Source: Actinomycetota bacterium (GTDB lineage: Bacteria; Actinomycetota; UBA4738; HRBIN12). Taken from it: a stretch of 62,472 nucleotides of DNA. The translations under genes were made by a program, and so were the position numbers. Shown here piece by piece: positions 10,344 to 56,198 of this stretch. Position 1 is the stretch's first letter. Each line of letters starts with the position of its first letter. The notes under the pieces were generated by a model that was given only the letters and a program-made list of their open reading frames with translations, was not told where the DNA came from and did not search any database. Where the stretch lies: assembly GCA_040754475.1 (NCBI GenBank), contig JBFMCN010000092.1, positions 1-62,472 of the forward strand, in the 5' to 3' direction.

Positions 10344-10418
10344 GGGCGCTTAGCTCAGCGGGAGAGCGCTGCCCTTACAAGGCAGAGGTCGATGGTTCGA
10401 ATCCATCAGCGCCCACCA
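10344..10418 (+). tRNA. tRNA-Val (anticodon UAC), CCA encoded
   Basis: Acceptor GGGCGCT/AGCGCCC, anticodon stem CTGCC/GGCAG with loop CTTACAA, T arm GATGG-TTCGAAT-CCATC, discriminator A, CCA at 10416..10418. Confidence 0.9.
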
Positions 10419-21425: not shown

Positions 21426-21791
21426 CGGAGGAGCCGACCGGGCGGCCGCGGGCGCAAGCTCGAGGAAAGTCCGGACTCCGTAGGGCAGGGTGCTGGGTAA
21501 CGCCCAGGCGGGGGCGACCTCGCGGATAGCGCAACAGAAAGCAGACCGCCGCGAAAGCGGTAAGGGTGAAACGGTGAGGCAAGAGCTCACCAGCGGGCCG
21601 GGTGACCGGTCCGGCTAGGCAAGCCCCACCCGGAGCAAGGTCAAGCAGGGAGCGTTCGAGGGCGGCCCGTCCGAGCTCCCGGGTAGACCGCACGAGGGTT
21701 TCGGCCCCGGGGCCCGCGAGGGCCCAGAGAGATGGTCGCCGCCGGCCCGCGAGGGTCGGCACAGAATCCGGCTTACAGGCCGGCTCCTCCG
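21426..21791 (+). ncRNA. rnpB: RNase P RNA, bacterial type A
   Basis: P1 pairing CGGAGGAGCCG (21426..21436) with CGGCTCCTCCG (21781..21791). Universally conserved blocks GAGGAAAGTCCGG, ACAGAAA, GGTAAGGGTGAAA and ACAGAATCCGGCTTA. Confidence 0.92.
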
Positions 21792-34789: not shown

Positions 34790-34995
34790 CGGCTCTCGAG
34801 GTGATCTCGGCCGGCGGTTCCGGCCGAGGTCGTAGCGGGGCGGGCCATCCCGCACCGCCAAGAGGGAAGCCGGTGGGAGTCCGGCGCGGTCGCGCCACTG
34901 TGACCGGGGAGCGAACCCGACGTAGCCACTGGGGAGTCATCCCGGGAAGGGTCGGGGGAGCGGCGATCCGGGAGTCAGGAGACCTGCCCCGAGGG
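34790..34995 (+). promoter_or_regulatory. Cobalamin (B12) riboswitch
   Basis: Conserved core AGAGGGAAGCCGGTGGGAGTCCGGCGCGGTCGCGCCACTGTGA, GCCACTGG...GGGAAGG, and B12 box AGTCAGGAGACCTGCC (34973..34988). Ends about 40 nt before the btuF-like start. Confidence 0.88.
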
Positions 34996-35992: not shown

Positions 35993-37029
35993 TCGCGTCG
36001 CGCAGGTACCGGCGGACCATGGGGGGGCTCCTCGCGGCACTCGTCGCCTCGTTCCTGCTGGCAGTCGCGGTGGGGGCCGTCTGGATCTCGCCGTGGTCGA
36101 CCATCCGGCTTGTCGCGTGGAAGCTCGGGTTCGTCCCTCGGCCGGCCGGCGTTCCGCATTCGACCGAGGTGATCTTGTTGCAGCTTCGGCTGCCTCGCGT
36201 CGTTCTGGCGGGGGTCGTGGGCGCGGCGCTGGCCGCGTCGGGCGCGGTGTTCCAGGGGCTGTTCCGGAACCCGCTCGCCGACCCGGCGATCATCGGGGTC
36301 TCGTCCGGGGCGGCGCTTGGGGCGATCGGCGTGATCGTGTTCGCGGGGTCGGGAGCCCTGGGAGCCTTCGGCGTGCCACTCGCTGCCTTCGCGGGTGCGT
36401 TGCTCACGGCGCTTCTCGTGTACCGGCTGGCGCGGATCGGACCGACGGTGCACGTCGCCACCCTCCTGCTGGCCGGGATAGCGGTCGCGGCCGTGATCTC
36501 CAGCGTCATGTCTTTGGTGATGTCGTTCTCGGGTCAGCAGGTTCGGGACATCTACGCGTGGCTGCTCGGGGGGCTCGTCGGCCAGGGTTGGAGGTCGATC
36601 GCGGCGATCGTGCCGCTGGTGGGACTCGGAGTGGGAGCCGCGGCGGTTACGGCCCACGACCTGAACCTGATGGCGCTGGGAGAGGAACGAGCCGCGCAGC
36701 TCGGTATCGATGTCGATCGGTTGAAGCGCCGGTCGATCGCCATCGGGGCGCTCCTGGCCGCCTGCGCGGTCTCGGTGGCGGGCGTTATCGGCTTCGTCGG
36801 GCTGATGACGCCGCACCTGCTGAGGCTGTTCGTCGGCGCGGACCACCGTCGGCTGCTGCCGGCGGTCCTGCTCGCGGGTCCGGTCCTCCTGATACTCGCA
36901 GACCTCGTCGCGAGGGTGGTGCTCGCTCCGCAGGAGCTTCCAGTGGGGATTGTCACGGCGCTTCTGGGTGGCCCGTTCTTCCTGTACCTGCTTCGTCGAG
37001 AGGGAAGGAGGGCGCGTGCCTACGGGTGA
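35989..37029 (+). CDS. btuC: FecCD-family ABC permease (BtuC-like)
   Basis: 346 aa, about 9-10 TM helices. Typical FecCD motifs (LPRVLLA-like LPRVVLAGVVGAALA; GxIGFVGL). Confidence 0.88.
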   Translation: MIASRRYRRTMGGLLAALVASFLLAVAVGAVWISPWSTIRLVAWKLGFVPRPAGVPHSTEVILLQLRLPRVVLAGVVGAALAASGAVFQGLFRNPLADPAIIGVSSGAALGAIGVIVFAGSGALGAFGVPLAAFAGALLTALLVYRLARIGPTVHVATLLLAGIAVAAVISSVMSLVMSFSGQQVRDIYAWLLGGLVGQGWRSIAAIVPLVGLGVGAAAVTAHDLNLMALGEERAAQLGIDVDRLKRRSIAIGALLAACAVSVAGVIGFVGLMTPHLLRLFVGADHRRLLPAVLLAGPVLLILADLVARVVLAPQELPVGIVTALLGGPFFLYLLRREGRRARAYG

Positions 37030-38263
37030 GCCGGCGCTGGTCCTCGAGGCGGTCACGGCAGGCTACGGCGGGCCGCCGGCCTTGAGAGACGTGAGTCTCG
37101 ACGTTCGGCCGGGGGAGGTTGTCGGGCTCGTCGGTCCGAACGGGTCCGGGAAGACCACGCTCGTGCGGGCCGCCTCGCGCGCGCTCCGTCCGCTGTCGGG
37201 GGCCGTTCTCGTGGCCGGCCGCGACCCGTACCGCCTTCCGGCGCGCGAGGCGGCCCGCCTGGTCGCGGTCGTTCCTCAGGATGTGACCCCCGCCTTCTCG
37301 TTCACCGCGCTTGAGATGGTCCTGATGGGCCGTACTCCTCACCTCTCAGCCTGGGGGGGTGGAGGACCTGAGGATTGGCCGAGGGTGCGCGAGGCCATGG
37401 CGGCGACGTCCGTGCAGCACCTGGCGGACCGACCCGTGGAGGAGCTCTCGGGTGGCGAGCGGCGACGGGTCGTGCTGGCGCAGGCGCTCGCCCAGGACGC
37501 ACCTGTGCTGCTTCTGGACGAACCCACCGCGCATCTCGACATCCGCCACGTCTTGGAGGTGCTCGATGTCGTTCGCGGCCTGGCTGCCAGGGAGGGAACG
37601 GCCGTCCTCGCGATCTTCCACGACCTGGATCTGGCCGCCGCCAACTGCGACCGTCTCGTTGCCCTTCACCGGGGTGAGGTCGCAGCGGCGGGAGCGCCGG
37701 AGCGGGTGGTCACGCGCGAACTGCTCGAGACGGTGTACGGGGTCGAGGCGGAGGTCGTCGCGGACGAGGTCACCGGCCGCCCCGCCGTACGTCTCGGCGC
37801 GCGCCCGGCGGCACCGGCGGCGCTCGGGCGGCGCGCTCACGTGATCGGCGGCGCGGGGCGCGGGGCGCCGCTGCTTCGCCGGCTCTCCGAGGCCGGCTTC
37901 GAGGTCAGCGTCGGCGTGCTGCACGCCACCGACACCGACGCCGTCGTCGCCGAGCGACTGAACCTGCTTCGTGTGAGCGTCCCCCCGTTCTCAGAGATCG
38001 ATGGCGAGAGCGCGGCGGAGGCCCGGAGACTCGCCGTGAGCGCCGATCTGCTCGTCGTGTGCGACGCCCCCTATGGCGCCGGCAACCTGGAGAACCTGCG
38101 CATAGCCCTCGAAGCTGCAAAGGGCGGAGTCCGAACCCTTCTCCTCGAGGAGGTGCCTATCGCCGAGCGCGACTTCACGGGCGGGATCGCCACGGGACTC
38201 TGGTGCGCGCTCCGCGAAAGGGCCGAGGTCGTCCGCAGCTACGACGACGTGGCCGTCTGCTGA
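37016..38263 (+). CDS. btuD: ABC transporter ATP-binding protein (BtuD/FepC-like) with an additional ~144-aa C-terminal domain
   Basis: GTG 37016 after GGAAGGAGG. Walker A GPNGSGKTT, signature LSGGERRR, Walker B LLLDEPT, H-loop. After about residue 270 comes an extra Rossmann-like segment (HVIGGAGRGAPLLRRLSEAGFEV..., DLLVVCDAPYGAGNLENL...). Confidence 0.85.
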   Translation: MPTGEPALVLEAVTAGYGGPPALRDVSLDVRPGEVVGLVGPNGSGKTTLVRAASRALRPLSGAVLVAGRDPYRLPAREAARLVAVVPQDVTPAFSFTALEMVLMGRTPHLSAWGGGGPEDWPRVREAMAATSVQHLADRPVEELSGGERRRVVLAQALAQDAPVLLLDEPTAHLDIRHVLEVLDVVRGLAAREGTAVLAIFHDLDLAAANCDRLVALHRGEVAAAGAPERVVTRELLETVYGVEAEVVADEVTGRPAVRLGARPAAPAALGRRAHVIGGAGRGAPLLRRLSEAGFEVSVGVLHATDTDAVVAERLNLLRVSVPPFSEIDGESAAEARRLAVSADLLVVCDAPYGAGNLENLRIALEAAKGGVRTLLLEEVPIAERDFTGGIATGLWCALRERAEVVRSYDDVAVC

Positions 38264-40341: not shown

Positions 40342-40749
40342 ATGGACGAACTCGCCCCCGACCTTTCAGCTACCTCGGACTCGGCTACCTCGGACGAGGC
40401 CGGCCCATCGTCAGGTCGGCATCAGGCTGACGAGACGGCCGACGGAGCCTCGCCGACCGGCGACCTGGTGCTCGACGCTCTGCGCAATGTGTACGACCCA
40501 GAGCTCGGCATCAACATCGTGGACCTCGGGCTGGTGTACACGGTCGAGGTCGAGGGAGGCGTCGTCCGCATCGAGTACACGCTCACCACGATGGGATGCC
40601 CGATCGGCCCGCTCATCGAGCGGCAGATGCACGCGCTCGTCGCCGGCATCCCCGGGGTGGAAGAGGTCGACATCGAGATGGTGCTGCGGCCGCCCTGGGG
40701 CCCAGACATGATGTCCGAGGAGGCCAAGGCGGCGCTCGGGTTCTTCTAG
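40342..40749 (+). CDS. DUF59 (MIP18/SufT-like) Fe-S assembly protein with a Ser/Thr/Asp-rich N-terminal extension
   Basis: Core VYDPELGINIVDLGLVY...TMGCPIGP, typical of SufT/PaaD-like DUF59. The N-terminus contains a 15-nt tandem repeat (40369..40395). Confidence 0.8.
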   Translation: MDELAPDLSATSDSATSDEAGPSSGRHQADETADGASPTGDLVLDALRNVYDPELGINIVDLGLVYTVEVEGGVVRIEYTLTTMGCPIGPLIERQMHALVAGIPGVEEVDIEMVLRPPWGPDMMSEEAKAALGFF

Positions 40750-40901
40750 GGTCGGCTGACTGACCGGCCTGATCCGGGTGGGGCGCCAGGCACCGGGAAG
40801 TGTCTCCGATGTGCTATTCCGACTGGTCAGGTGGACTTACGCCTCCCCTGCGACGTAACCTAGGGACGATCAGCCGGAACAGGGTCTAGGAAGGACGAGA
40901 G

Positions 40902-42314
40902 GTGGCCGTCAGCCAGGAAGAGCACCTCAGGGAGCTCTCGAAGGGCTACCGCTTCGATTGGAAGGATCCCGAACACTCGGTCTTCCAGCCGAAGCGAGGC
41001 CTGAGCGAGGCCGTCGTGGCGGAGATCTCCGAGCGCAAGGGGGAGCCCGACTGGATGCGCAAGTTCCGGCTGAAGGCATACCGGCACTTCTCCAAGCGCC
41101 CGATGCCGTGGTGGGGCGCCGACCTGTCGGGGATCGGTTTCGACGACATCTACTACTACATCAAGCCCACGGAGCAGCAGGCGAAGAGCTGGGACGACCT
41201 TCCGGAGGACATACGGGGGACCTGGGACAAGCTCGGGATACCCGAGGCGGAGAAGAAGTACCTCGGCGGCGTGTCGGCCCAGTACGAGTCCGAGGTCGTG
41301 TACCACAAGGTTCGCGAGGAGCTCGCGTCGATGGGGGTGCTGTTCAGCGACATGGACGGCGGTCTGCGCGAGCACCCGGACATCGTGCGCGAGTACTTCG
41401 GGACCCTCATCCCGGCGAACGACAACAAGTTCGCGGCGCTGAACTCCGCCGTGTGGTCCGGCGGATCGTTCATCTACGTGCCGCCGGGCGTGCACGTGGA
41501 CATACCGCTCCAGGCCTACTTCCGCATCAACGCCGAGAACATGGGCCAGTTCGAGCGGACGCTGATCATCGCCGACGAGGGCTCCTACGTTCACTACGTC
41601 GAGGGCTGCTCGGCGCCGATCTACACGAGCGACTCCCTACACGCGGCGGTCGTGGAGATCATCATCAAGCGGGGTGCGCGGGTCAGGTACACGACGATCC
41701 AGAACTGGTCCACCAACGTCTACAACCTCGTGACCAAGCGCTCGGCTGCTTACGAGGACGCGGTGATGGAGTGGGTCGACGGCAACATCGGGTCTAAGGT
41801 CACGATGAAGTACCCGTCGATCTACCTGCTCGGCAAGGGCGCCCGCGGAGAGGTGCTTTCGGTGGCCTACGCGGGTCGCGGCCAGCACACCGACGCGGGT
41901 GGAAAGGCGATCCACGCCGCGCCGTACACGACGAGCGTGATCACGAGCAAGTCGGTCTCCAAGGACGGGGGTAGAACGGGCTACCGCGGTCTCGTCCGCG
42001 TGGAGCCCGACGCGCACCACGCCAAGTCCACCGTCCGATGCGACGCGCTGATCCTCGACGAGGACTCGCGCTCGGACACCTACCCGTACATCGAGGTCGA
42101 GGAGGAGACCGCCGCGCTCGGCCACGAGGCGACCGTGTCGAAGGTCGGCGAGGACCAGCTCTTCTACCTGATGAGCCGCGGCCTCACCGAGCCCGAGGCG
42201 ACCGCGATGATCGTGAACGGGTTCATCGAGCCGATCACTCGTGAGCTGCCGATGGAGTACGCGGTCGAGCTGAACCGCCTGGTCGAGCTCCAGATGGAGG
42301 GCTCGGTCGGCTAG
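40902..42314 (+). CDS. sufB: Fe-S cluster assembly scaffold protein SufB (intein-free)
   Basis: 470 aa with characteristic SufB sequence throughout (…[15 protein letters not shown]…, …[23 protein letters not shown]…-like). GTG start after AGGAAGGA. Confidence 0.93.
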
Positions 42315-42319
42315 CCCGA

Positions 42320-43060
42320 TCAGTTCAGCGGCGTGAGCGGCCCATCTCCGATCTCTGTGAGGATCTCGTTCACTAGGTCCACCGCTCGCTGACGGAGGCG
42401 ATCGAGCTGGGAAGCGAGGGCACTATCGTGTGTGAACAGATCGTCGTATCGGTCGAACATCCATCGGCCGAAGCCTCCATGCTGATAGAAGTCGACGTTG
42501 AGGCCGAGCCCGTCGCGCAACTGCTGCCTGGCAGCGTCGATCGCCGCTACCGCTTCATCAAGCTTGCCCCTCCAGACCGGATTGGCGACCTGACTCTTCC
42601 CCGCTACACGTCTGATCACGAACCCATCGCGAGTCCGCCAGCACCCCGTATTCACGGCCAGGACTGTGTCCTCAAGAGCCTGATCCAGGTCTGAGAAGCT
42701 CATCTCTTGGTGGAATCTCGTCCGGAAGGCCGGCCGGTCGAAGCATTGAGCATAGAAGCGCACAAGTTCCACGTCTGCGAACCACTTCGGGTTCCCCGGC
42801 CTGATGGAAGATGCGTCTGCGGCCAGGTTGATGGTCCGGTCGAGGTGCCCTCGAAGCTCTTGCTCGGTGTATGCCCGAGTTGTCCGGCCTGGGCCCTGGT
42901 GCGCGTGGACCTCGTCGTGGCAGTTGGGGCACAGCGGGATGGCGTTGGAGGGATTGTCGGAACCCCCCTCACTCCTGGGCAGAATGTGGTGCACCTGCAC
43001 GCCGTGGAGGCGGTTACAGATGGCGCACATCCGGCCAGTGCGGGCAAGAACTTCACTCAC
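42320..43060 (-). CDS. HNH endonuclease domain protein with an uncharacterised ~170-aa C-terminal domain
   Basis: HNH motif CAICN...VQVHHILPRSEGGSDNPSNAIPLCPNCHDEVH. The stop lies 5 nt after the sufB stop. Start uncertain: GTG 43060, ATG 43030, or ORF-track start 43168, which has poor GC3 and overlaps vapB. Hand GC count is about 60% versus 65-70% in the flanks. Confidence 0.75.
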   Translation of the reverse strand: MSEVLARTGRMCAICNRLHGVQVHHILPRSEGGSDNPSNAIPLCPNCHDEVHAHQGPGRTTRAYTEQELRGHLDRTINLAADASSIRPGNPKWFADVELVRFYAQCFDRPAFRTRFHQEMSFSDLDQALEDTVLAVNTGCWRTRDGFVIRRVAGKSQVANPVWRGKLDEAVAAIDAARQQLRDGLGLNVDFYQHGGFGRWMFDRYDDLFTHDSALASQLDRLRQRAVDLVNEILTEIGDGPLTPLN

Positions 43061-43136
43061 TGTCTTCCGGGGGAAAGCCACGAGCGGATTCTGACACACG
43101 CAACTGGCCCCGGTGGGTGGGTAGGGGCAACTGCTG

Positions 43137-43142
43137 TATACT
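43137..43142 (+). promoter_or_regulatory. -10-like hexamer TATACT, 9 nt upstream of the vapB-like ATG
   Basis: AT-rich TANNNT hexamer in the HNH/vapB divergent spacer. Spacing is compatible with a very short or leaderless 5' UTR. Confidence 0.25.
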
Positions 43143-43151
43143 GCGCTGGAT

Positions 43152-43382
43152 ATGGCAGCTACACGCACCCAGGTCTACCTGACCAAGGAACAGAGGGCGA
43201 AGCTCGACGAGCTCGGGCGGCGTGGGGAAAGGACGCTGGCGGAGCTCATCCGAGAGGCTGTGGACCGCTACCTGGAGGAAGAGCGCCGAGTGGACCCGAA
43301 CGAGGCGCTCGAGGCTACCTTCGGCGCGTGCCCGGATCTTGAGATCCCCAACCGCGGCGAGTGGAACCGGGACCTTGGCTGA
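43152..43382 (+). CDS. vapB: Ribbon-helix-helix (CopG/VapB-type) antitoxin
   Basis: 76 aa. The N-terminal TRTQVYLTKEQRAKLDELGRRGERTLAELIREAVDRYL matches the RHH pattern. Overlaps the downstream PIN gene by 8 nt. Confidence 0.75.
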   Translation: MAATRTQVYLTKEQRAKLDELGRRGERTLAELIREAVDRYLEEERRVDPNEALEATFGACPDLEIPNRGEWNRDLG

Positions 43383-43725
43383 CGTCCTCGTCGACACCGA
43401 TGTCTTCGTTGACCATCTGCGGGGACACGCACGGTTCGATCCCGGGCCGGATCGGGTTCTCTACTCGGTCGTGACCAGGGCCGAGCTGTTCGCCGGCGCG
43501 GGAGCCAACGAGGCGGTCATCAGGAAGCTCCTCGAGCCGTTCGCGGAGGTGCCGGTCGAGCGTGAGATAGCCGAGGCGGCGGGGACTCTTCGACGGGCAG
43601 TGGGGGTGTCGCTCCCCGATGCGCTGATCGGCGCCTCGGCGCTTTCCCGTGGGGCCACGCTCTTGACCCGCAACCGGCGGGACTTCGACCGGATCCCCGG
43701 CTTGAAGGTTCGGGCACCGCGCTGA
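43375..43725 (+). CDS. vapC: PIN-domain ribonuclease toxin (VapC-like)
   Basis: TTG 43375 in frame. Acidic PIN residues at VLVDTDVFVD, TRAELF, LPDALIGASA and TRNRRDF. 116 aa. Confidence 0.75.
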   Translation: MADVLVDTDVFVDHLRGHARFDPGPDRVLYSVVTRAELFAGAGANEAVIRKLLEPFAEVPVEREIAEAAGTLRRAVGVSLPDALIGASALSRGATLLTRNRRDFDRIPGLKVRAPR

Positions 43726-43737
43726 TGAGCCGAGGGG

Positions 43738-43760
43738 AATCCTATCCCCTTGATAGGATT
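43738..43760 (+). promoter_or_regulatory. AT-rich perfect 9-bp inverted repeat AATCCTATC-N5-GATAGGATT immediately upstream of sufD
   Basis: Read from the sequence. The right arm contains TAGGAT/AGGA (43754..43759), 7-8 nt before the sufD ATG (43767). This could be an occluded SD, a -10 element for a leaderless sufD mRNA, or a terminator for vapC. Confidence 0.5.
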
Positions 43761-43766
43761 TGATCA

Positions 43767-45086
43767 ATGAGCACTGTGGAGACGAGCGCGGGCGCGTTCG
43801 ACGAGGAGACACTGGCCGCGCTGCCGGCCTCGACCCCGTTCGTGAAGTCGCTTCGGAAGCAGGCGTTCGAGGAGTTCGTCGCGCTGCCGATCCCGTCGCA
43901 GGAGACCGAGGAATGGCGCTACACGGACCTGTCCGACCTGAACCTGTCCTTCACGCCGTTTGCGGCCGGAGGCAAGGCGGACAACCTGGACGACGTTCCC
44001 GGCGAGATCCTGGAGGCCGCGGGCGTCGTTGGCGAACGAGCCGGGCTCCAGATCCAGCGGAACTCCGAGGTCATGGTCGCGCACCTGGATCCGGAGCTCG
44101 CGGCCAAGGGCGTCGTCTTCGCCGATCTAGACCGCGCGGCCGCCGAGCATCCCGACCTCGTCGAACCGAACCTCCACGCTCTGGTGCCGACCTCGCGCAC
44201 CAAGTTCACCGCCCTTCACGGCGCCTTCCGAGCCGGCGGTACGTTCCTGTACGTGCCCCCGGCCGTGACCGTCGAGCTGCCGCTGCAAACCCTCACGTAT
44301 CTGGACGCGGACGGCGCCGCGGTCTTTCCACACACCCTGATCGTTGTCGGGGAGGACGCCGAGGTGACGTTCATCGACCGCTTCGCCTCGCCGAACCTCA
44401 CGCGGGGCCTCTCAGACGCGATCGTCGAGATCTACGCGGGGCCCGCATCGCGGGTCCGCTACGTGTCGATCCAGGAGTGGGGGGACGGCGTCACGCACCT
44501 CGGCATCCAGCGCACGCACGTGGAGCGGGACGCCGACTTCCGCTCGCTCGCCGTGGGGTTCGGCGCCTCGCTCGCCCGCGCCGAGGCCGAGAGCCTCCTC
44601 GCGGGGCCGGGAGGATCAAGCGAGATGCTCGGCGTGTACTTCGCTGACGGGACCCAGCACTTCGACCACCGCTCGGAGCAGGATCATCTGGCGCCGGGCT
44701 GTACCAGCGACCTGCTCTACAAGGGAGCGCTCCGGGACCGATCCAGAGGCGTCTACTCCGGTTGGGTGCACGTGCGGCCGGGTGCCCAGAAGACAGACGC
44801 CATGCAGACCAGCCGCAACATCCTGCTCTCGGAGGGGGCCTTCGGCCGCGCCATCCCCAACCTCGAGATCGAGGCGAACGACGTGCGCTGTGGCCACGCG
44901 GCGAGCGTGGGACCCGTCGAGGAGGAGACGCTCTTCTACCTCGAGAGTCGCGGGATCCCCCGCAAGGAGGCCGAGCGCCTGATCGTGTTCGGGTTCTTCA
45001 ACGAGGTCCTGGACCGGGTGCTCCTGGAGGAAGTCCGCGACAGCGTCACTGCGGCCATCGAGGCCGAGCTGGCGAGGGGGGGCTGA
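43767..45086 (+). CDS. sufD: Fe-S cluster assembly protein SufD
   Basis: 439 aa. SufB/SufD-family beta-helix C-terminal region (…SRNILLSEGAFGRAIPNLEIEANDVRCGHAASVGP…). Confidence 0.9.
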   Translation: MSTVETSAGAFDEETLAALPASTPFVKSLRKQAFEEFVALPIPSQETEEWRYTDLSDLNLSFTPFAAGGKADNLDDVPGEILEAAGVVGERAGLQIQRNSEVMVAHLDPELAAKGVVFADLDRAAAEHPDLVEPNLHALVPTSRTKFTALHGAFRAGGTFLYVPPAVTVELPLQTLTYLDADGAAVFPHTLIVVGEDAEVTFIDRFASPNLTRGLSDAIVEIYAGPASRVRYVSIQEWGDGVTHLGIQRTHVERDADFRSLAVGFGASLARAEAESLLAGPGGSSEMLGVYFADGTQHFDHRSEQDHLAPGCTSDLLYKGALRDRSRGVYSGWVHVRPGAQKTDAMQTSRNILLSEGAFGRAIPNLEIEANDVRCGHAASVGPVEEETLFYLESRGIPRKEAERLIVFGFFNEVLDRVLLEEVRDSVTAAIEAELARGG

Positions 45087-45087
45087 G

Positions 45088-45411
45088 ATGCCGCTCACAA
45101 GGATCTGCGCCGTGACGGACGTCCCCGAGGGGGAGGCGCGAAGGTTCGAGGTCGGCGACCGGCCGGTCGCCGTCGTGAACCTGGGCGAGGAGGGTTTCCG
45201 CGCGGTCGATTCGATCTGCTCGCATGCGCGCTACTTCCTCGACGAGGGCGAGGTGGACGTCGACTTGGAGACCATCGAGTGCCCGAAGCACGGCTCCACG
45301 TTCGACCTGAACACCGGCGAGCCGCGGACCCTCCCCGCGACGGTGCCGGTGCAGACCTTTCCAGTGAGGATCGACGACGACGATGTTCTGATCGAGGTGA
45401 CCGATGACTGA
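45088..45411 (+). CDS. Rieske [2Fe-2S] ferredoxin-like protein
   Basis: CSH...(17)...CPKHG Rieske ligand motifs. 107 aa, wedged between sufD and sufC. Confidence 0.85.
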   Translation: MPLTRICAVTDVPEGEARRFEVGDRPVAVVNLGEEGFRAVDSICSHARYFLDEGEVDVDLETIECPKHGSTFDLNTGEPRTLPATVPVQTFPVRIDDDDVLIEVTDD

Positions 45412-49517: not shown

Positions 49518-53168
<3,651 letters not shown>

Positions 53169-53200
53169 AGGCGACACATCGTACCTTGCGTCTGACCAGG

Positions 53201-53226
53201 ATCGTCGGCGACTCGTCGCCGACGAT
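53201..53226 (-). terminator. Perfect GC-rich hairpin ATCGTCGGCGAC-TC-GTCGCCGACGAT between the AKR gene and metH
   Basis: 12-nt arms read from the sequence (effective ~10-bp stem). Located 41 nt past the AKR stop. No U-tract. Confidence 0.4.
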
Positions 53227-53266
53227 GCGAACTGATCTGAGGACGCCCGGGCCGGCTGCGGCTCGT

Positions 53267-54226
53267 CTACCCGAACGCCGGGCCGAGGGGTAGCAGCTCC
53301 TCCAGTTCGGTGAGGGTCGCTTCGTCGAGCTCGACCTCGCCGGCGGCGGCATTGGAGCGGACGTGCTCCGGGTTGCGGCTGCCGGCGATCGCGGCGGTGA
53401 CTCCCGGCTGGTGGAAGTTCCAGGCGAGAGCGAGCTGTGCGAGCGTGACGCCCAGGCGGTCGGCGATCGGCCGCATGGCGCCTGCGACGGCGAGGCTTCG
53501 CTCGATCCTCCCGGGCTTGAACATCTCGTCGTAGGGGTGCCAATAGTCGGGGGTCCCGCGAAAGTCGCCCGGCGCGAAGGTAGTTCCGGAGCCGATCGCA
53601 CCGCTCAGCAGGCCGTATGCGAGCGGGCCGTACGAGAGCACGCCGACGCCGGCTTCGCCGCACCAGCGGATCAGCTCCCGGTCGTCCAGGTGGAGCATCG
53701 AGAGCTCCTGCTGCAGCGAATCCACACGTCGAACCTCCTCGCAACGCTCGATCATGCCCCGGTCGAAGTTCGACACGCCGGCGAACCGGACGAGACCCTC
53801 GTCCACGAGGGCGGCCATCGCCCCCCATGTGTCCTCCACCGGGACTCCGGCTTCGTCCGGCCAGTGCAGCTGGTACACGTCGATTCGGTCGGTCTGCAGA
53901 CGCTGCAGGCTCTTCCTGCAGGCCTTGCCAATCTGATCCGGGCGGAACCCGGTGCCGTCGGGCTCGGGTGCGACCTTCGTGGCGATCAGGACCTCGTCCC
54001 GGCGACCGGCGATCGCCCGGCCGACAAGCTCCTCCGACCTTCCGTCTCCGTAGACCTCTGCGGTGTCGATCCAGTTGATGCCCGTGTCGAGCACGGTGCG
54101 GATGGCCTGCACGATCTGGTCCTCGGGCGGAGCCACTCCCCACTCGCGTCCCATGCCGGCCTCCCAGGCCCCGAAACCGACGACGGAGAGGTCCGGTCCG
54201 GCATGACCCAGACGCGCTGTCCTCAT
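53267..54226 (-). CDS. Aldo/keto reductase
   Basis: 319 aa from [19 protein letters not shown] (ATG 54226, GGGAGG RBS). AKR motifs IDTAEVYG and LHWPD. Confidence 0.88.
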
Positions 54227-54359
54227 GTCGACACACCTCCCGATCGAGGGATGGGGACAATCTACCGTCTGCCCGATCCCAGCCAAGAGGAGGCTGTAGG
54301 CTAGGGAGTGGATCACCCCCACACGTAGGGAGGCGGCCGGGCGCCGCCCGGCACACAAC

Positions 54360-56198
54360 ATGACCAAGGCGGTCGAAGAGAAAGACCACGTCGTCATCCG
54401 GTTCGCCGGCGACTCGGGTGACGGGATGCAACTAGCCGGCGAGAGATTCACGAACGCGACGGCGGTCCTCGGCAACGACCTCGCGACACTCCCGGACTTC
54501 CCGGCCGAGATACGTGCGCCCGCAGGGACGGTGCAGGGCGTCTCGGCGTTCCAGATCCAGTTCGCTGCGGGCGACGTCACGACGCCGGGCGACCATCCCA
54601 ACGTGTTGGTCGCCATGAACCCCGCGGCCCTGAAGGCCGAGCTCGGATCGGTACCGAAGGGCGGCACGGTCATCGTCAACGAGGACGCCTTCGCCGGGCG
54701 GAACCTCGAGAAGGCCGGCTACGGCTCCGACCCGCTCCGGGACGGCACGCTCGACGGCTACCTCGTCTATCGGGTCCCGATGACCTCGATCACCGTCCGC
54801 GCGATCGAGGAGATCGGCCTCACTCGAAGGGAGGCCGAGCGGTCCAAGAACATGTTCGCGCTCGGGCTCCTGTCGTGGATGTACGGGCGGCCCACGGAAG
54901 TCACGTTGGACTGGCTGGACAGGACGTTCCGGACGAAGCCGCATCTCCACGACGCGAACGTGGCCGCGTTCAAGGCCGGATACAACTTCGGGGAGACGAC
55001 GGAGGTCTTCGGCACCACCTACCGGGTGAAGCCGGCTCCGGCGATGCCCGGCGTATACCGGAACGTCTCGGGCTCGACGGCGCTGGCCCTCGGCCTGGTG
55101 GCCGCGAGCAAGCGGGGCGGGCTGCCGCTCTTCTATGCGAGCTACCCGATCACACCGGCCTCGGATCTGCTTCACGAGCTGTCGCGGCTCGAGGACTTCG
55201 GTGTCCGAACGCTCCAGGCGGAGGACGAGATCGCCGCCGCCGGGATCGCGCTCGGAGCCGCGTTCGCCGGAAGCCTCGGCGTCACCGGCACAAGCGGTCC
55301 GGGCATGGATCTGAAGGCTGAGACCGTCGGTCTCGCCGTCATGCTCGAGCTGCCGATGGTCATCGTCGACGTGCAGCGCGCCGGCCCGTCCACCGGCATG
55401 CCCACGAAGACCGAGGCGTCTGATCTCCTCGCTGCGATGTTCGGACGCCACGGCGAGTCACCGGTTCCGATCGTCGCCGCCCACACGCCGGCAAGCTGCT
55501 TCGAGGCGGCCATCGAGGCGTGCCGGATCGCGGTCGAGTACCGGACGCCTGTGATCCTTCTCTCCGACACGTTCCTCAGCAACTCGTCCGAGCCGTGGCG
55601 GATTCCGGAGATCGACTCCCTGCCGGTGATCGACCCCGACTTCGCGGCCCAACCGAACGCTGGGACCGAGTTCCTGCCGTATCTGCGCGACGAGAACCTC
55701 GTCAGGCCCTGGGCCACCCCCGGCACCCCGGGGCTGAGGCATCAGATCGGCGGGTTGGAGAAGGATGAGTCCGGGGGCATCAGCTACGACGCCCAGAACC
55801 ACGAGCGAATGACACACATCCGGGCGGCGAAGGTGGAGAGGATCGCCGACGACATCCCGTCGCTCGGCGTGGATGACCCGGGGGGCGACGCGGAGCTGCT
55901 CGTCCTGGGCTGGGGCTCTTCGTACGGGGCGATCCAGGCCGCGGCGCGGCGCGTCCGCGAGCGCGGAGTGAAAGTGGCGACGGCGCACTTCCACCATCTC
56001 AACCCGTTCCCGAAGAACACGGGCGAGGTAGTGCGTGCCTACCCGACGGTCCTGATCCCGGAGATGAACACGGGACAGCTGGCCCTGCTGATCCGCGGTA
56101 GATACCTGGTCGACGCGAGGAGCTTCTCGAAGGTTCGAGGTCAGCCGATCTTCGCGGAGGAGCTGGAGAACGAGATCCTGAAGGTGATGGAGGCATGA
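54360..56198 (+). CDS. korA: 2-oxoglutarate/2-oxoacid:ferredoxin oxidoreductase, alpha subunit
   Basis: 612 aa. N-terminal gamma-like domain fused to the alpha domain, as in actinobacterial KorA. YPITPAS motif. Confidence 0.9.

Follow-up and report, generated by a model that had tools for sequence, protein, structure and literature searches.

The spacer between sufB and sufD in a 62,472-nt stretch of DNA from an Actinomycetota bacterium (NCBI GenBank assembly GCA_040754475.1, contig JBFMCN010000092.1; hereafter the window) is probably a composite of two unrelated accessory modules that lie in a variable, lineage-specific slot within the suf operon. This spacer (42315-43766) is exactly 1452 bp long and contains three intact genes: a minus-strand HNH-nuclease gene, whose stop codon lies 5 nt past that of sufB, and a plus-strand pair encoding a ribbon-helix-helix (RHH) antitoxin-like protein and a PIN-domain toxin-like protein. 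The initial annotation of the region reported the same separation, gene content and distance between the sufB and HNH stops, all of which agree with the open reading frames (ORFs) and Pfam matches. It also interpreted the three genes as one selfish-looking cassette. This is not what the comparison with relatives indicates: the RHH-PIN pair is shared with several relatives as a block with sufD and the HNH gene is found only in the window.

Gene content of the junction across relatives

We located sufB and sufD at 80 loci of related metagenome-assembled genomes (MAGs) obtained from a SufD scan, with one genome per species. Loci of relatives are designated by L-numbers, and the underlying data are MAGs and metagenomes. 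The SufD relatives place the contig in uncultured Actinomycetota, and the SufB protein of the window is 84-96% identical to that of the relatives. In the nearest relative (L007; SufB 96%, SufD 90%), the junction measures 138 bp and contains no HNH, RHH or PIN gene. We detected no scar of a deleted cassette in the spacer of L007 (local alignment score of 24 vs. 22.7 +/- 2.5 for shuffled sequences). The empty junction of this species bears out the accessory nature of the DNA, as first proposed.

Across the clade, the gap between the two genes spans -14 to 4607 bp. It ranges from -14 to 94 bp at 31 loci and from about 350 to 4600 bp in 27 further relatives, where it is filled with unrelated ORFs. 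Overall, 28 of the 69 scorable junctions hold more than 300 bp of unrelated cargo, and the adjacency of sufB and sufD, initially taken to be the norm, is often lost in this clade. Judging by sequence appearance, with a Pfam check for some of them, the cargo genes include DinB-like and YciI-like genes, a GMC-oxidoreductase plus RDD combination, and genes for methyltransferases and sigma factors. Within the sub-clade carrying RHH-PIN, the cargo includes HsdR-Schlafen (HsdR-SLFN), Fic, HicB and Phd-PIN genes and two HNH families. No integrase gene was found in the spacer using Pfam. These results show that the junction is a lineage-specific variable hotspot with conserved flanks and a content that changes across relatives.

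Boundaries of the slot and turnover of its occupants

Comparing the window to L122, L123, L126, L013 and L016 with blastn, we observed that the homology on the left stops at 42313-42316 and resumes on the right at 43132-43134. From position 43132 onward, about 20 nt before the ATG of the RHH gene, the homology spans RHH, PIN and sufD. Because this boundary parts the HNH gene, the only gene unique to the window, from the RHH-PIN-sufD block, the trio is better described as composite than as one cassette. Indeed, the block is common to L122, L123-126, L013, L016 and L207.

The segment adjacent to sufB holds different genes in different relatives. In L123-126, it contains a minus-strand DUF222-HNH gene of 407 aa, whose stop codon lies 3 nt past the sufB stop, and tblastn identified a 38-aa ORF of L123 as a Schlafen remnant that accompanies the intact DUF222-HNH gene. 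The 580-bp slot of L122 contains remnants of the C-terminus of DUF222-HNH and of the C-terminus of HsdR-Schlafen (tblastn), and the slot of L055 contains a methyltransferase and a DUF222-HNH remnant. The HsdR-SLFN gene is intact in L013, L016 and L207. In L122, L013 and L016, the HsdR-SLFN ORF ends with ...RWG(R) and a stop codon just before the promoter-like box of the RHH gene. A stretch of about 14 nt in the window (cggtggg..tag) could be a remnant of the same 3'-end, a length that is too short for statistics. With tblastn, no other DUF222-HNH, SLFN or methyltransferase remnant was found in the slot of the window.

Terminal inverted repeats and target-site duplications were found at chance level only, both around the HNH gene and around the whole spacer. 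The flanks are 92-98% identical to L122, the single comparator, up to both boundaries and without a divergent tract. L007 is empty yet also lacks RHH-PIN, and the relatives with RHH-PIN hold other genes or remnants; no clean empty site was observed.

The HsdR-Schlafen fusions are located directly upstream of RHH-PIN (L013, 579-4349; L016, 27-2624; L207, 2007-5519). They are composed of HSDR_N, SWI2_SNF2/ResIII and T1R_D3 helicase domains, similar to the R-subunit of type I enzymes, and of a C-terminal Schlafen/AlbA_2 domain. Neither hsdM nor hsdS was visible in L207, where the neighboring genes are Fic, DUF3024 and HicB. The long upstream ORFs of L013 and L016 were considered as an intein or a large SufB and were found to be these fusions instead.

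The RHH-PIN pair

The assignment of the pair to VapBC-type modules in the initial annotation was supported by several lines of evidence. The Pfam PIN match covers positions 1-119 of the 120 positions of the profile, and the residues D7, D9, E37 and D82 are invariant among 24 homologs, with D103 located in the TRNRRDF motif (TRN..DF). The PIN gene begins with TTG at 43375, in an 8-nt overlap with the end of the RHH gene, and its best solved relatives are VapC ribonucleases (top match 7by2; 2.1e-9). The NCBIfam scores for equivalogs of characterized VapC (e.g., tRNA-fMet-specific) were 33.7 and 23.8 bits, far below the respective cut-offs of 140 and 80. The pairing of RHH and PIN is retained in 74 of 80 metagenome relatives. 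The pair resembles type II VapBC modules by its small RHH gene overlapping a 116-aa PIN gene and by its D7, E37, D82 and TRN..DF residues. It differs from them by its unusual location, as several relatives keep it syntenic with sufD within an operon for Fe-S assembly. A literature search combining sufB/sufD with VapC returned no papers.

We found RHH-PIN to be continuous with sufD in at least eight related contigs, and the synteny RHH-PIN-sufD was observed in L122, L123-126, L207, L208, L013, L016 and L055. The closest PIN homologs are all suf-linked. The PIN of L122 is 87% identical to that of the window and its locus reads sufB, 580 bp, RHH-PIN. It is followed by four samples (L123-126; PIN 74%) with the order sufB, minus-strand DUF222-HNH, RHH-PIN and sufD-Rieske-sufCSU. 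L207 (PIN 74-76%) presents Fic, DUF3024, HicB, HsdR-Schlafen (1170 aa), RHH-PIN and sufD, and L208 (PIN 70%) presents RHH-PIN, four minus-strand genes and sufD. Finally, L013 and L016 (PIN 53% and 56%) present HsdR-Schlafen, RHH-PIN and sufD. The RHH protein shares 92% identity with the copy of L122 and 65-78% with the remaining suf-linked copies, and the suf-linked pairs group together in the tree of RHH and PIN (74 pairs). Among 80 metagenome relatives of the pair, 79 (at most 67% identity) showed no suf gene and no HNH gene of the two families in their vicinity, and the 80th (L127) is the L124 contig. The pairs of L209 and L210 (67% identity) are likewise not located at suf.

The four genes between RHH-PIN and sufD in L208 (2008-3453) are a second toxin-antitoxin (TA) pair, composed of a PhdYeFM antitoxin and a PIN protein, and two small ORFs. 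Cargo can therefore also be acquired between the pair and sufD.

A conserved box precedes the RHH gene (CTGCTGTATACTGCGCTGGAT in the window). The box, CTGTATACTGCGCTG, is kept at all seven suf-linked RHH-PIN loci that we examined (window, L122, L123, L207, L208, L013 and L016) and is a putative promoter/operator. Its GTATAC palindrome yields -10-like hexamers in both directions, TATACT on the plus strand and TATACA on the minus strand. One could therefore speculate that the HNH gene is transcribed divergently from this box, under the control of RHH.

Base composition

The HNH ORF has a GC-content of 62.0%, compared to 65.3% for sufB and 68.4% for the whole window. This value corresponds to the 0.08th percentile of all 849-bp windows of the contig, whose minimum is 61.7%. 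The GC-content at third codon positions (GC3) is 73% for the HNH ORF, 81% for RHH and PIN, 93% for sufB and 88-93% for the suf genes. Using a crude set of 50 genes, the z-score of the GC3 of HNH was only about -1.5, and PIN and HNH ranked 6th and 7th for the atypicality of their codon usage. In the initial annotation, GC-content had been counted by hand on a few lines; the estimate of about 60% for HNH was close to the computed value and that of 65-70% for sufB was somewhat high. Its claim that the HNH gene is compositionally atypical holds as a moderate signal. Overall, composition moderately favors a foreign origin, with the clearest signal in the HNH gene.

The HNH protein and its C-terminal domain

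The family of the HNH protein comprises 126 clusters of homologs with 41-68% identity, which are conserved over their full length. Based on alignments with 26 and then 73 homologs, GTG at 43081 is the most likely start codon. A longer ORF of 282 aa, which overlaps the start of RHH, is an unlikely product because the homologs begin with MAF... and are about 253-255 aa long. A disrupted ORF was a possibility raised by the initial annotation; the gene is intact and presents every residue that is invariant or nearly so in the family (H31/H32, N46, H55/H59, C19, C22, C51 and C54). The AlphaFold2 model has a pLDDT of 87.6.

Only residues ~10-100 match known models, namely generic HNH models (Pfam, PHROGs) and the cores of IscB, McrA, DpdF and mREase_IV. 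Structural matches were likewise restricted to the HNH core (McrA, Cap5, Cas5-HNH and IscB), and a fold search gave no match for the helical C-terminal half. In PADLOC-DB 2.0, the HNH core alone (aa 39-100) matches mREase_IV (2.6e-7), DpdF and PDC-M01B, and RHH and PIN have no match.

The C-terminal domain is about 160 aa long, presents the conserved pattern DRPAFR...E.SF...EDT...NTG..R.RDG and is covered by no Pfam model. Searching exhaustively with the last 159 aa of the protein, we obtained 294 representative proteins (including P0245-P0387). In P0252, P0315 and P0342, for which domain positions were checked, TIR, Mrr_cat and CHAT domains are located on the N-terminal side of this domain. 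Other proteins with this C-terminal domain carry ThsB_TIR, CAP12-TIR, SLFN_AlbA_2, SMEK_N, EAD7 or EAD11, and HATPase_c was found on its C-terminal side. Such domains are typical of prokaryotic conflict systems (PMC7159879). This swapping of effectors around a shared domain suggests an immune-type nuclease composed of an effector and a sensor rather than a sequence-specific homing enzyme. We therefore favor, on the basis of domain architecture, the view that the HNH protein, with its N-terminal HNH nuclease of McrA/Cas9 type, is a single-protein defense-type nuclease whose C-terminal domain is a predicted sensor or regulator.

The genomic contexts of six HNH homologs all differ and are of accessory or mobile type, including integrase/Mrr/DEAD-MZB/SNF2, TIR, IS4/IS110, RelE-MqsA and DUF2637 genes. 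No conserved partner gene was found across these six contexts.

The protein can be compared to three groups of known nucleases. The type IV nucleases McrA/ScoMcrA and Cap5-type effectors share with it an HNH beta-beta-alpha-Me core and a CxxC...CxxC zinc site, and give its best matches in structure and sequence (6ghc, 5zmm, 8fm1). In contrast to them, it has no SRA, SBD, SAVED or N-terminal recognition domain, no CBASS genes are found nearby, and its partner domain has no solved or annotated homolog. Members of the DUF222-HNH family, listed as the repetitive element REP13E12 in mycobacteria (PMC10589994), are also solitary HNH genes of actinobacteria, and one of them fills the identical slot in L123-126. 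Unlike these, the HNH protein of the window has no DUF222 domain (Pfam), its HNH motif is N-terminal instead of C-terminal, and the remainder is unrelated: identity to the DUF222-HNH protein of L123 is 35%, across the 43-aa HNH motif only. Finally, free-standing HNH homing endonucleases of phages also appear as lone HNH genes between two conserved genes, and matches in BFVD include phage proteins named 'HNH homing endonuclease', over the core only. Unlike them, the gene of the window shows no full-length occurrence in phage contigs, no recurrence at the same site and, in the comparison with L122, no signal of co-conversion.

A conserved motif upstream of sufD

A promoter-like motif (GAATCCTATCCCCTTGATAGGATT) directly precedes sufD in the window. 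Its general form is GAATCCGACC-N5-G-N-TAGGATT, with TAGCAT and TAGACT variants, and we identified 49 copies upstream of sufD (48 relatives and the window) with an identical frame of 23 nt. At loci with an identified sufD start codon, this codon follows the motif after 4-10 nt, and mostly after 6-7 nt. The copy at 43737-43760 is unique in the window, where no match is expected by chance. A related form, GAATCCGACC-N5/6-RTAGACT, was found in 22 related loci about 70-115 nt before sufB, including loci whose sufD has no motif. These copies then carry a second conserved element, GGGTACCCTGTA or GGCTATCC. The window presents a diverged copy upstream of sufB (CTATTCCGACTGGTCAGGTGGACT).

All the relatives with cargo, and some without, present the motif directly before sufD. 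Cargo of more than 300 bp was found at 28 of 38 junctions with the motif and at none of the 31 junctions without it (P = 3.5e-11; Fisher test, uncorrected for kinship). The right half of the motif resembles the -10 element of actinobacteria (TANNNT), and its invariant spacing to the start codon suggests that the sufD mRNA may be leaderless. The conservation of the left half exceeds that expected of a spacer, and this half may therefore be bound by a regulator. The motif is thus a candidate promoter/operator that would produce a leaderless sufD transcript.

Several other interpretations of the motif were rejected. The copy of the window is a perfect 9-5-9 palindrome, as expected for an RNA or DNA hairpin, but the TAGCAT and TAGACT variants unpair without compensation, and Rfam gave no match for the sufD motif. 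It does not behave as an attachment (att) site: no second copy was found at the left boundary of any cargo and the extra copies precede sufB. Compared by eye, the known sites for IscR (types 1 and 2), for SufR of cyanobacteria and Streptomyces (CAAC-N6-GTTG), for SufR of M. tuberculosis and for SigR (GGAAT-N18-GTT) do not fit the motif. No sufR gene adjoins the suf operon, and a scan of 40700-44000 for terminators returned a single terminator-like site of chance level.

A third class of junctions has spacers of 63-98 bp with a strong GC-rich hairpin, GAGGGCAGGCCG-N4/5-GGTCTGCCCTC, followed by a Shine-Dalgarno-like GGAG (L008, L009, L011, L014, L015, L019-L021, L054, L057-L059, L079, L083 and L084). 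These junctions present neither the suf motif nor cargo. The hairpin may represent an inter-cistronic stabilizer or attenuator.

Proposed history of the junction and alternative explanations

From the anatomy of the spacer, its boundaries, its distribution across relatives and the domain associations, we infer a promoter function, an order of events and a role for the nuclease. The copy of the suf upstream motif belonging to sufD (GAATCC-N-AC ... TAGNNT) would act as an internal promoter/operator. If so, sufDCSU would be freed from the read-through of sufB and the junction could therefore accept foreign genes. The VapBC-type RHH-PIN pair would have entered the junction long ago and would have been inherited since with sufD and its own GTATAC box, persisting probably through addiction or stabilization. 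In the most economical order of events, HsdR-Schlafen was present beside RHH-PIN, DUF222-HNH was then inserted, with a deletion, and in the lineage of the window the 253-aa HNH gene would have replaced the earlier occupants between the sufB stop and the RHH promoter. The HNH gene would thus be the newest arrival at the junction.

Several points weigh against this scenario. The association between motif and cargo was obtained without phylogenetic correction, and causality could be reversed, with insertions selecting for a new promoter. The promoter function is read from the sequence: a scan of 40700-44000 for the sigma-70 consensus found no promoter-like site, and AGGA inside TAGGAT could serve as a Shine-Dalgarno site in some copies. 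The tree based on PIN only sets L013, L016 and L055 apart from the clade of the window, which could reflect two independent acquisitions of the pair at this site. Only a single contig shows the HNH junction, and no record was found of an independent contig with the identical HNH C-terminus (P0241). Much of the cargo of the hotspot in relatives is metabolic or unknown, as with the DinB-like, YciI-like and GMC oxidoreductase genes, and not related to defense. Most of 88 proteins with the C-terminal domain present no recognizable effector domain, and PADLOC assigns no system. Finally, two unrelated HNH genes in a single slot are also expected if such nucleases are selfish.

Alternatively, the HNH gene could be a free-standing homing-type or selfish nuclease that cleaved a site at the sufB/RHH junction in a genome lacking the gene and entered there through repair-mediated copying, as initially suggested; we consider this unlikely. 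The gene is indeed solitary, without a conserved partner, atypical in composition and sharply bounded, its homologs are found near transposases and integrases, and an unrelated gene of REP13E12 type (DUF222-HNH) occupies the same slot in the same orientation in L123-126, with remnants in L122 and L055. However, the key signatures of homing were not observed. Members of the HNH family were found at suf in none of the 80 related genome loci and in none of the six homolog contexts, and no full-length member was found among the 2.9 M viral contigs of IMG/VR. The best homolog is merely 68% identical, which indicates no visible recent spread, and the conserved flanks shared with L122 leave no co-conversion tract. 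In addition, a C-terminal domain common to TIR, Mrr, CHAT and SLFN effectors fits immune effectors better than the target-recognition modules of homing enzymes. Selfish-element readings nevertheless persist as a residual explanation, since this one slot has received two distinct HNH genes.

Two further explanations give RHH-PIN a different role. It has been proposed that HNH, RHH and PIN form one three-gene defense or maintenance unit whose divergent genes share a regulatory region. The 70 bp between the HNH and RHH starts, the -10-like hexamers on both strands of the GTATAC palindrome and the presence of another HNH-type gene divergent from RHH in L123-126 are consistent with this proposal, which is largely refuted by the distribution of the genes and which we regard as very improbable. 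Indeed, the suf-linked RHH-PIN pairs of L013, L016, L207 and L208 are accompanied by no HNH gene, the metagenome relatives of the pair lie, with a single exception, near neither suf nor an HNH gene, RHH-PIN is a neighbor in none of the six contexts of the HNH family, the two modules lie on either side of the homology boundary at 43132, and PADLOC recognizes no system. It is also improbable, if slightly less so, that RHH-PIN has been domesticated as a regulator of sufDCSU, with RHH acting on transcription into sufD or PIN tuning the suf mRNA under stress. The position of the pair just before sufD is kept in contigs whose SufD is merely 60-80% identical, both genes are intact with their catalytic residues, and PIN ends 41 nt before sufD on the same strand with no terminator detected. 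Against this, neither the nearest relative nor most of the clade has RHH-PIN, four other genes lie between PIN and sufD in L208, this TA family is common at unrelated loci, and sufD has its own conserved motif with or without RHH-PIN.

Comparison with known hotspots and implications

Defense regions flanked by core genes have been described in Pseudomonas aeruginosa (core defense hotspots; PMC10250203) and in E. coli (defense islands; PMC10121019). The suf slot resembles these hotspots by its conserved flanks and by its restriction-modification-like, Schlafen, Fic, HicB, TA and nuclease genes. It differs from them in that it lies inside an essential operon, between paralogous and normally coupled subunits, and goes with a second copy of the upstream motif of the operon. 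Much of its cargo is also unrelated to defense, and no integrase or att repeats were seen.

A broader interpretation, which we put forward only tentatively, is that the suf operon has been split by a second copy of its motif before sufD, which would create a tolerated landing pad for the turnover of TA, restriction-like and nuclease genes, and that the HNH protein represents an undescribed single-protein immune family with a new 'DRPAF' sensor/adaptor module. This helical domain, which effectors of the HNH, TIR, Mrr, CHAT and Schlafen types have in common, may be such a new sensor or adaptor. If this is true, an essential and tightly coupled operon would become a hotspot of accessory genes once an internal promoter frees the downstream genes, which would provide a concrete and testable mechanism for where hotspots arise. 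Likewise, an unannotated domain that travels with classic immune effector domains would be a candidate for the discovery of defense systems. This locus is also a cautionary case, as adjacent genes that look selfish need not form one cassette: the old resident (VapBC) could be told from the newcomer (HNH) only by comparing the junction across relatives. These results do not overturn current views and involve known themes, namely core-gene-flanked hotspots, TA modules and HNH effectors.

Organization of the suf locus

The genes of the region are arranged on the contig as follows: the minus-strand genes of a histidine kinase and of a LuxR-type response regulator, then a SufT-like FeS_assembly_P gene, sufB, the spacer, sufD, a Rieske gene, sufC, sufS and sufU. 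The SUFBD_core matches of sufB and sufD range from 1e-81 to 1e-86 (Pfam). The TAG stop of sufB (42312-42314) is followed by CCCGA and by the reverse-strand stop of the HNH gene (42320-42322). The coordinates are given in Table 1.

Table 1. Coordinates and properties of features in the suf region of the window
Feature	Position	Strand	Properties
Diverged copy of the suf motif, CTATTCCGACTGGTCAGGTGGACT	40813-40838	+	64-89 nt upstream of sufB
sufB	40902-42314	+	470 aa, without intein; Pfam SUFBD_core 7.6e-86
Hypervariable slot	42317-43131		Only part of the spacer without DNA homology to any relative
HNH gene	42320-43081	-	253 aa, start GTG; Pfam HNH 9.4e-10
Conserved C-terminal domain of HNH	42323-42799	-	aa 95-253
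HNH zinc-finger core	42896-43036	-	About aa 16-62
Possible HsdR-Schlafen 3'-end remnant	43111-43124	+	By-eye alignment to L122, L013 and L016; weak
Conserved promoter/operator-like box of RHH, CTGCTGTATACTGCGCTGGAT	43131-43151	+	GTATAC palindrome; TATACT 9 nt before ATG
RHH (CopG-type) antitoxin-like gene	43152-43382	+	76 aa; Pfam RHH_1 1.5e-7
PIN-domain VapC-like toxin gene	43375-43725	+	116 aa, TTG start; Pfam PIN 5.4e-14
suf promoter-like motif, GAATCCTATCCCCTTGATAGGATT	43737-43760	+	TAGGAT ends 7 nt before sufD ATG
sufD	43767-45086	+	Pfam SUFBD_core
Rieske gene	45088-45411	+	Downstream of sufD; intact
sufC, sufS, sufU		+	Downstream of the Rieske gene; intact

Another insertion or deletion was observed near the suf operon: L123/L124 present a rhodanese gene (1963-2805) between the SufT-like gene and sufB, which has no counterpart in the window (40750-40901). 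The divergent two-component system located upstream is syntenic in L123/L124.

Elsewhere in the window, we identified a cobalamin riboswitch (34828-34988) upstream of a gene cluster that includes an ABC ATPase ORF (36950-38263), as well as a class A RNase P RNA (21430-21791), a tRNA-Met (52-127) and a tRNA-Val (10344-10418). Finally, a very long minus-strand ORF (49518-54431; 1638 aa) presents a coding-like GC3 of 0.79 (crude gene set).

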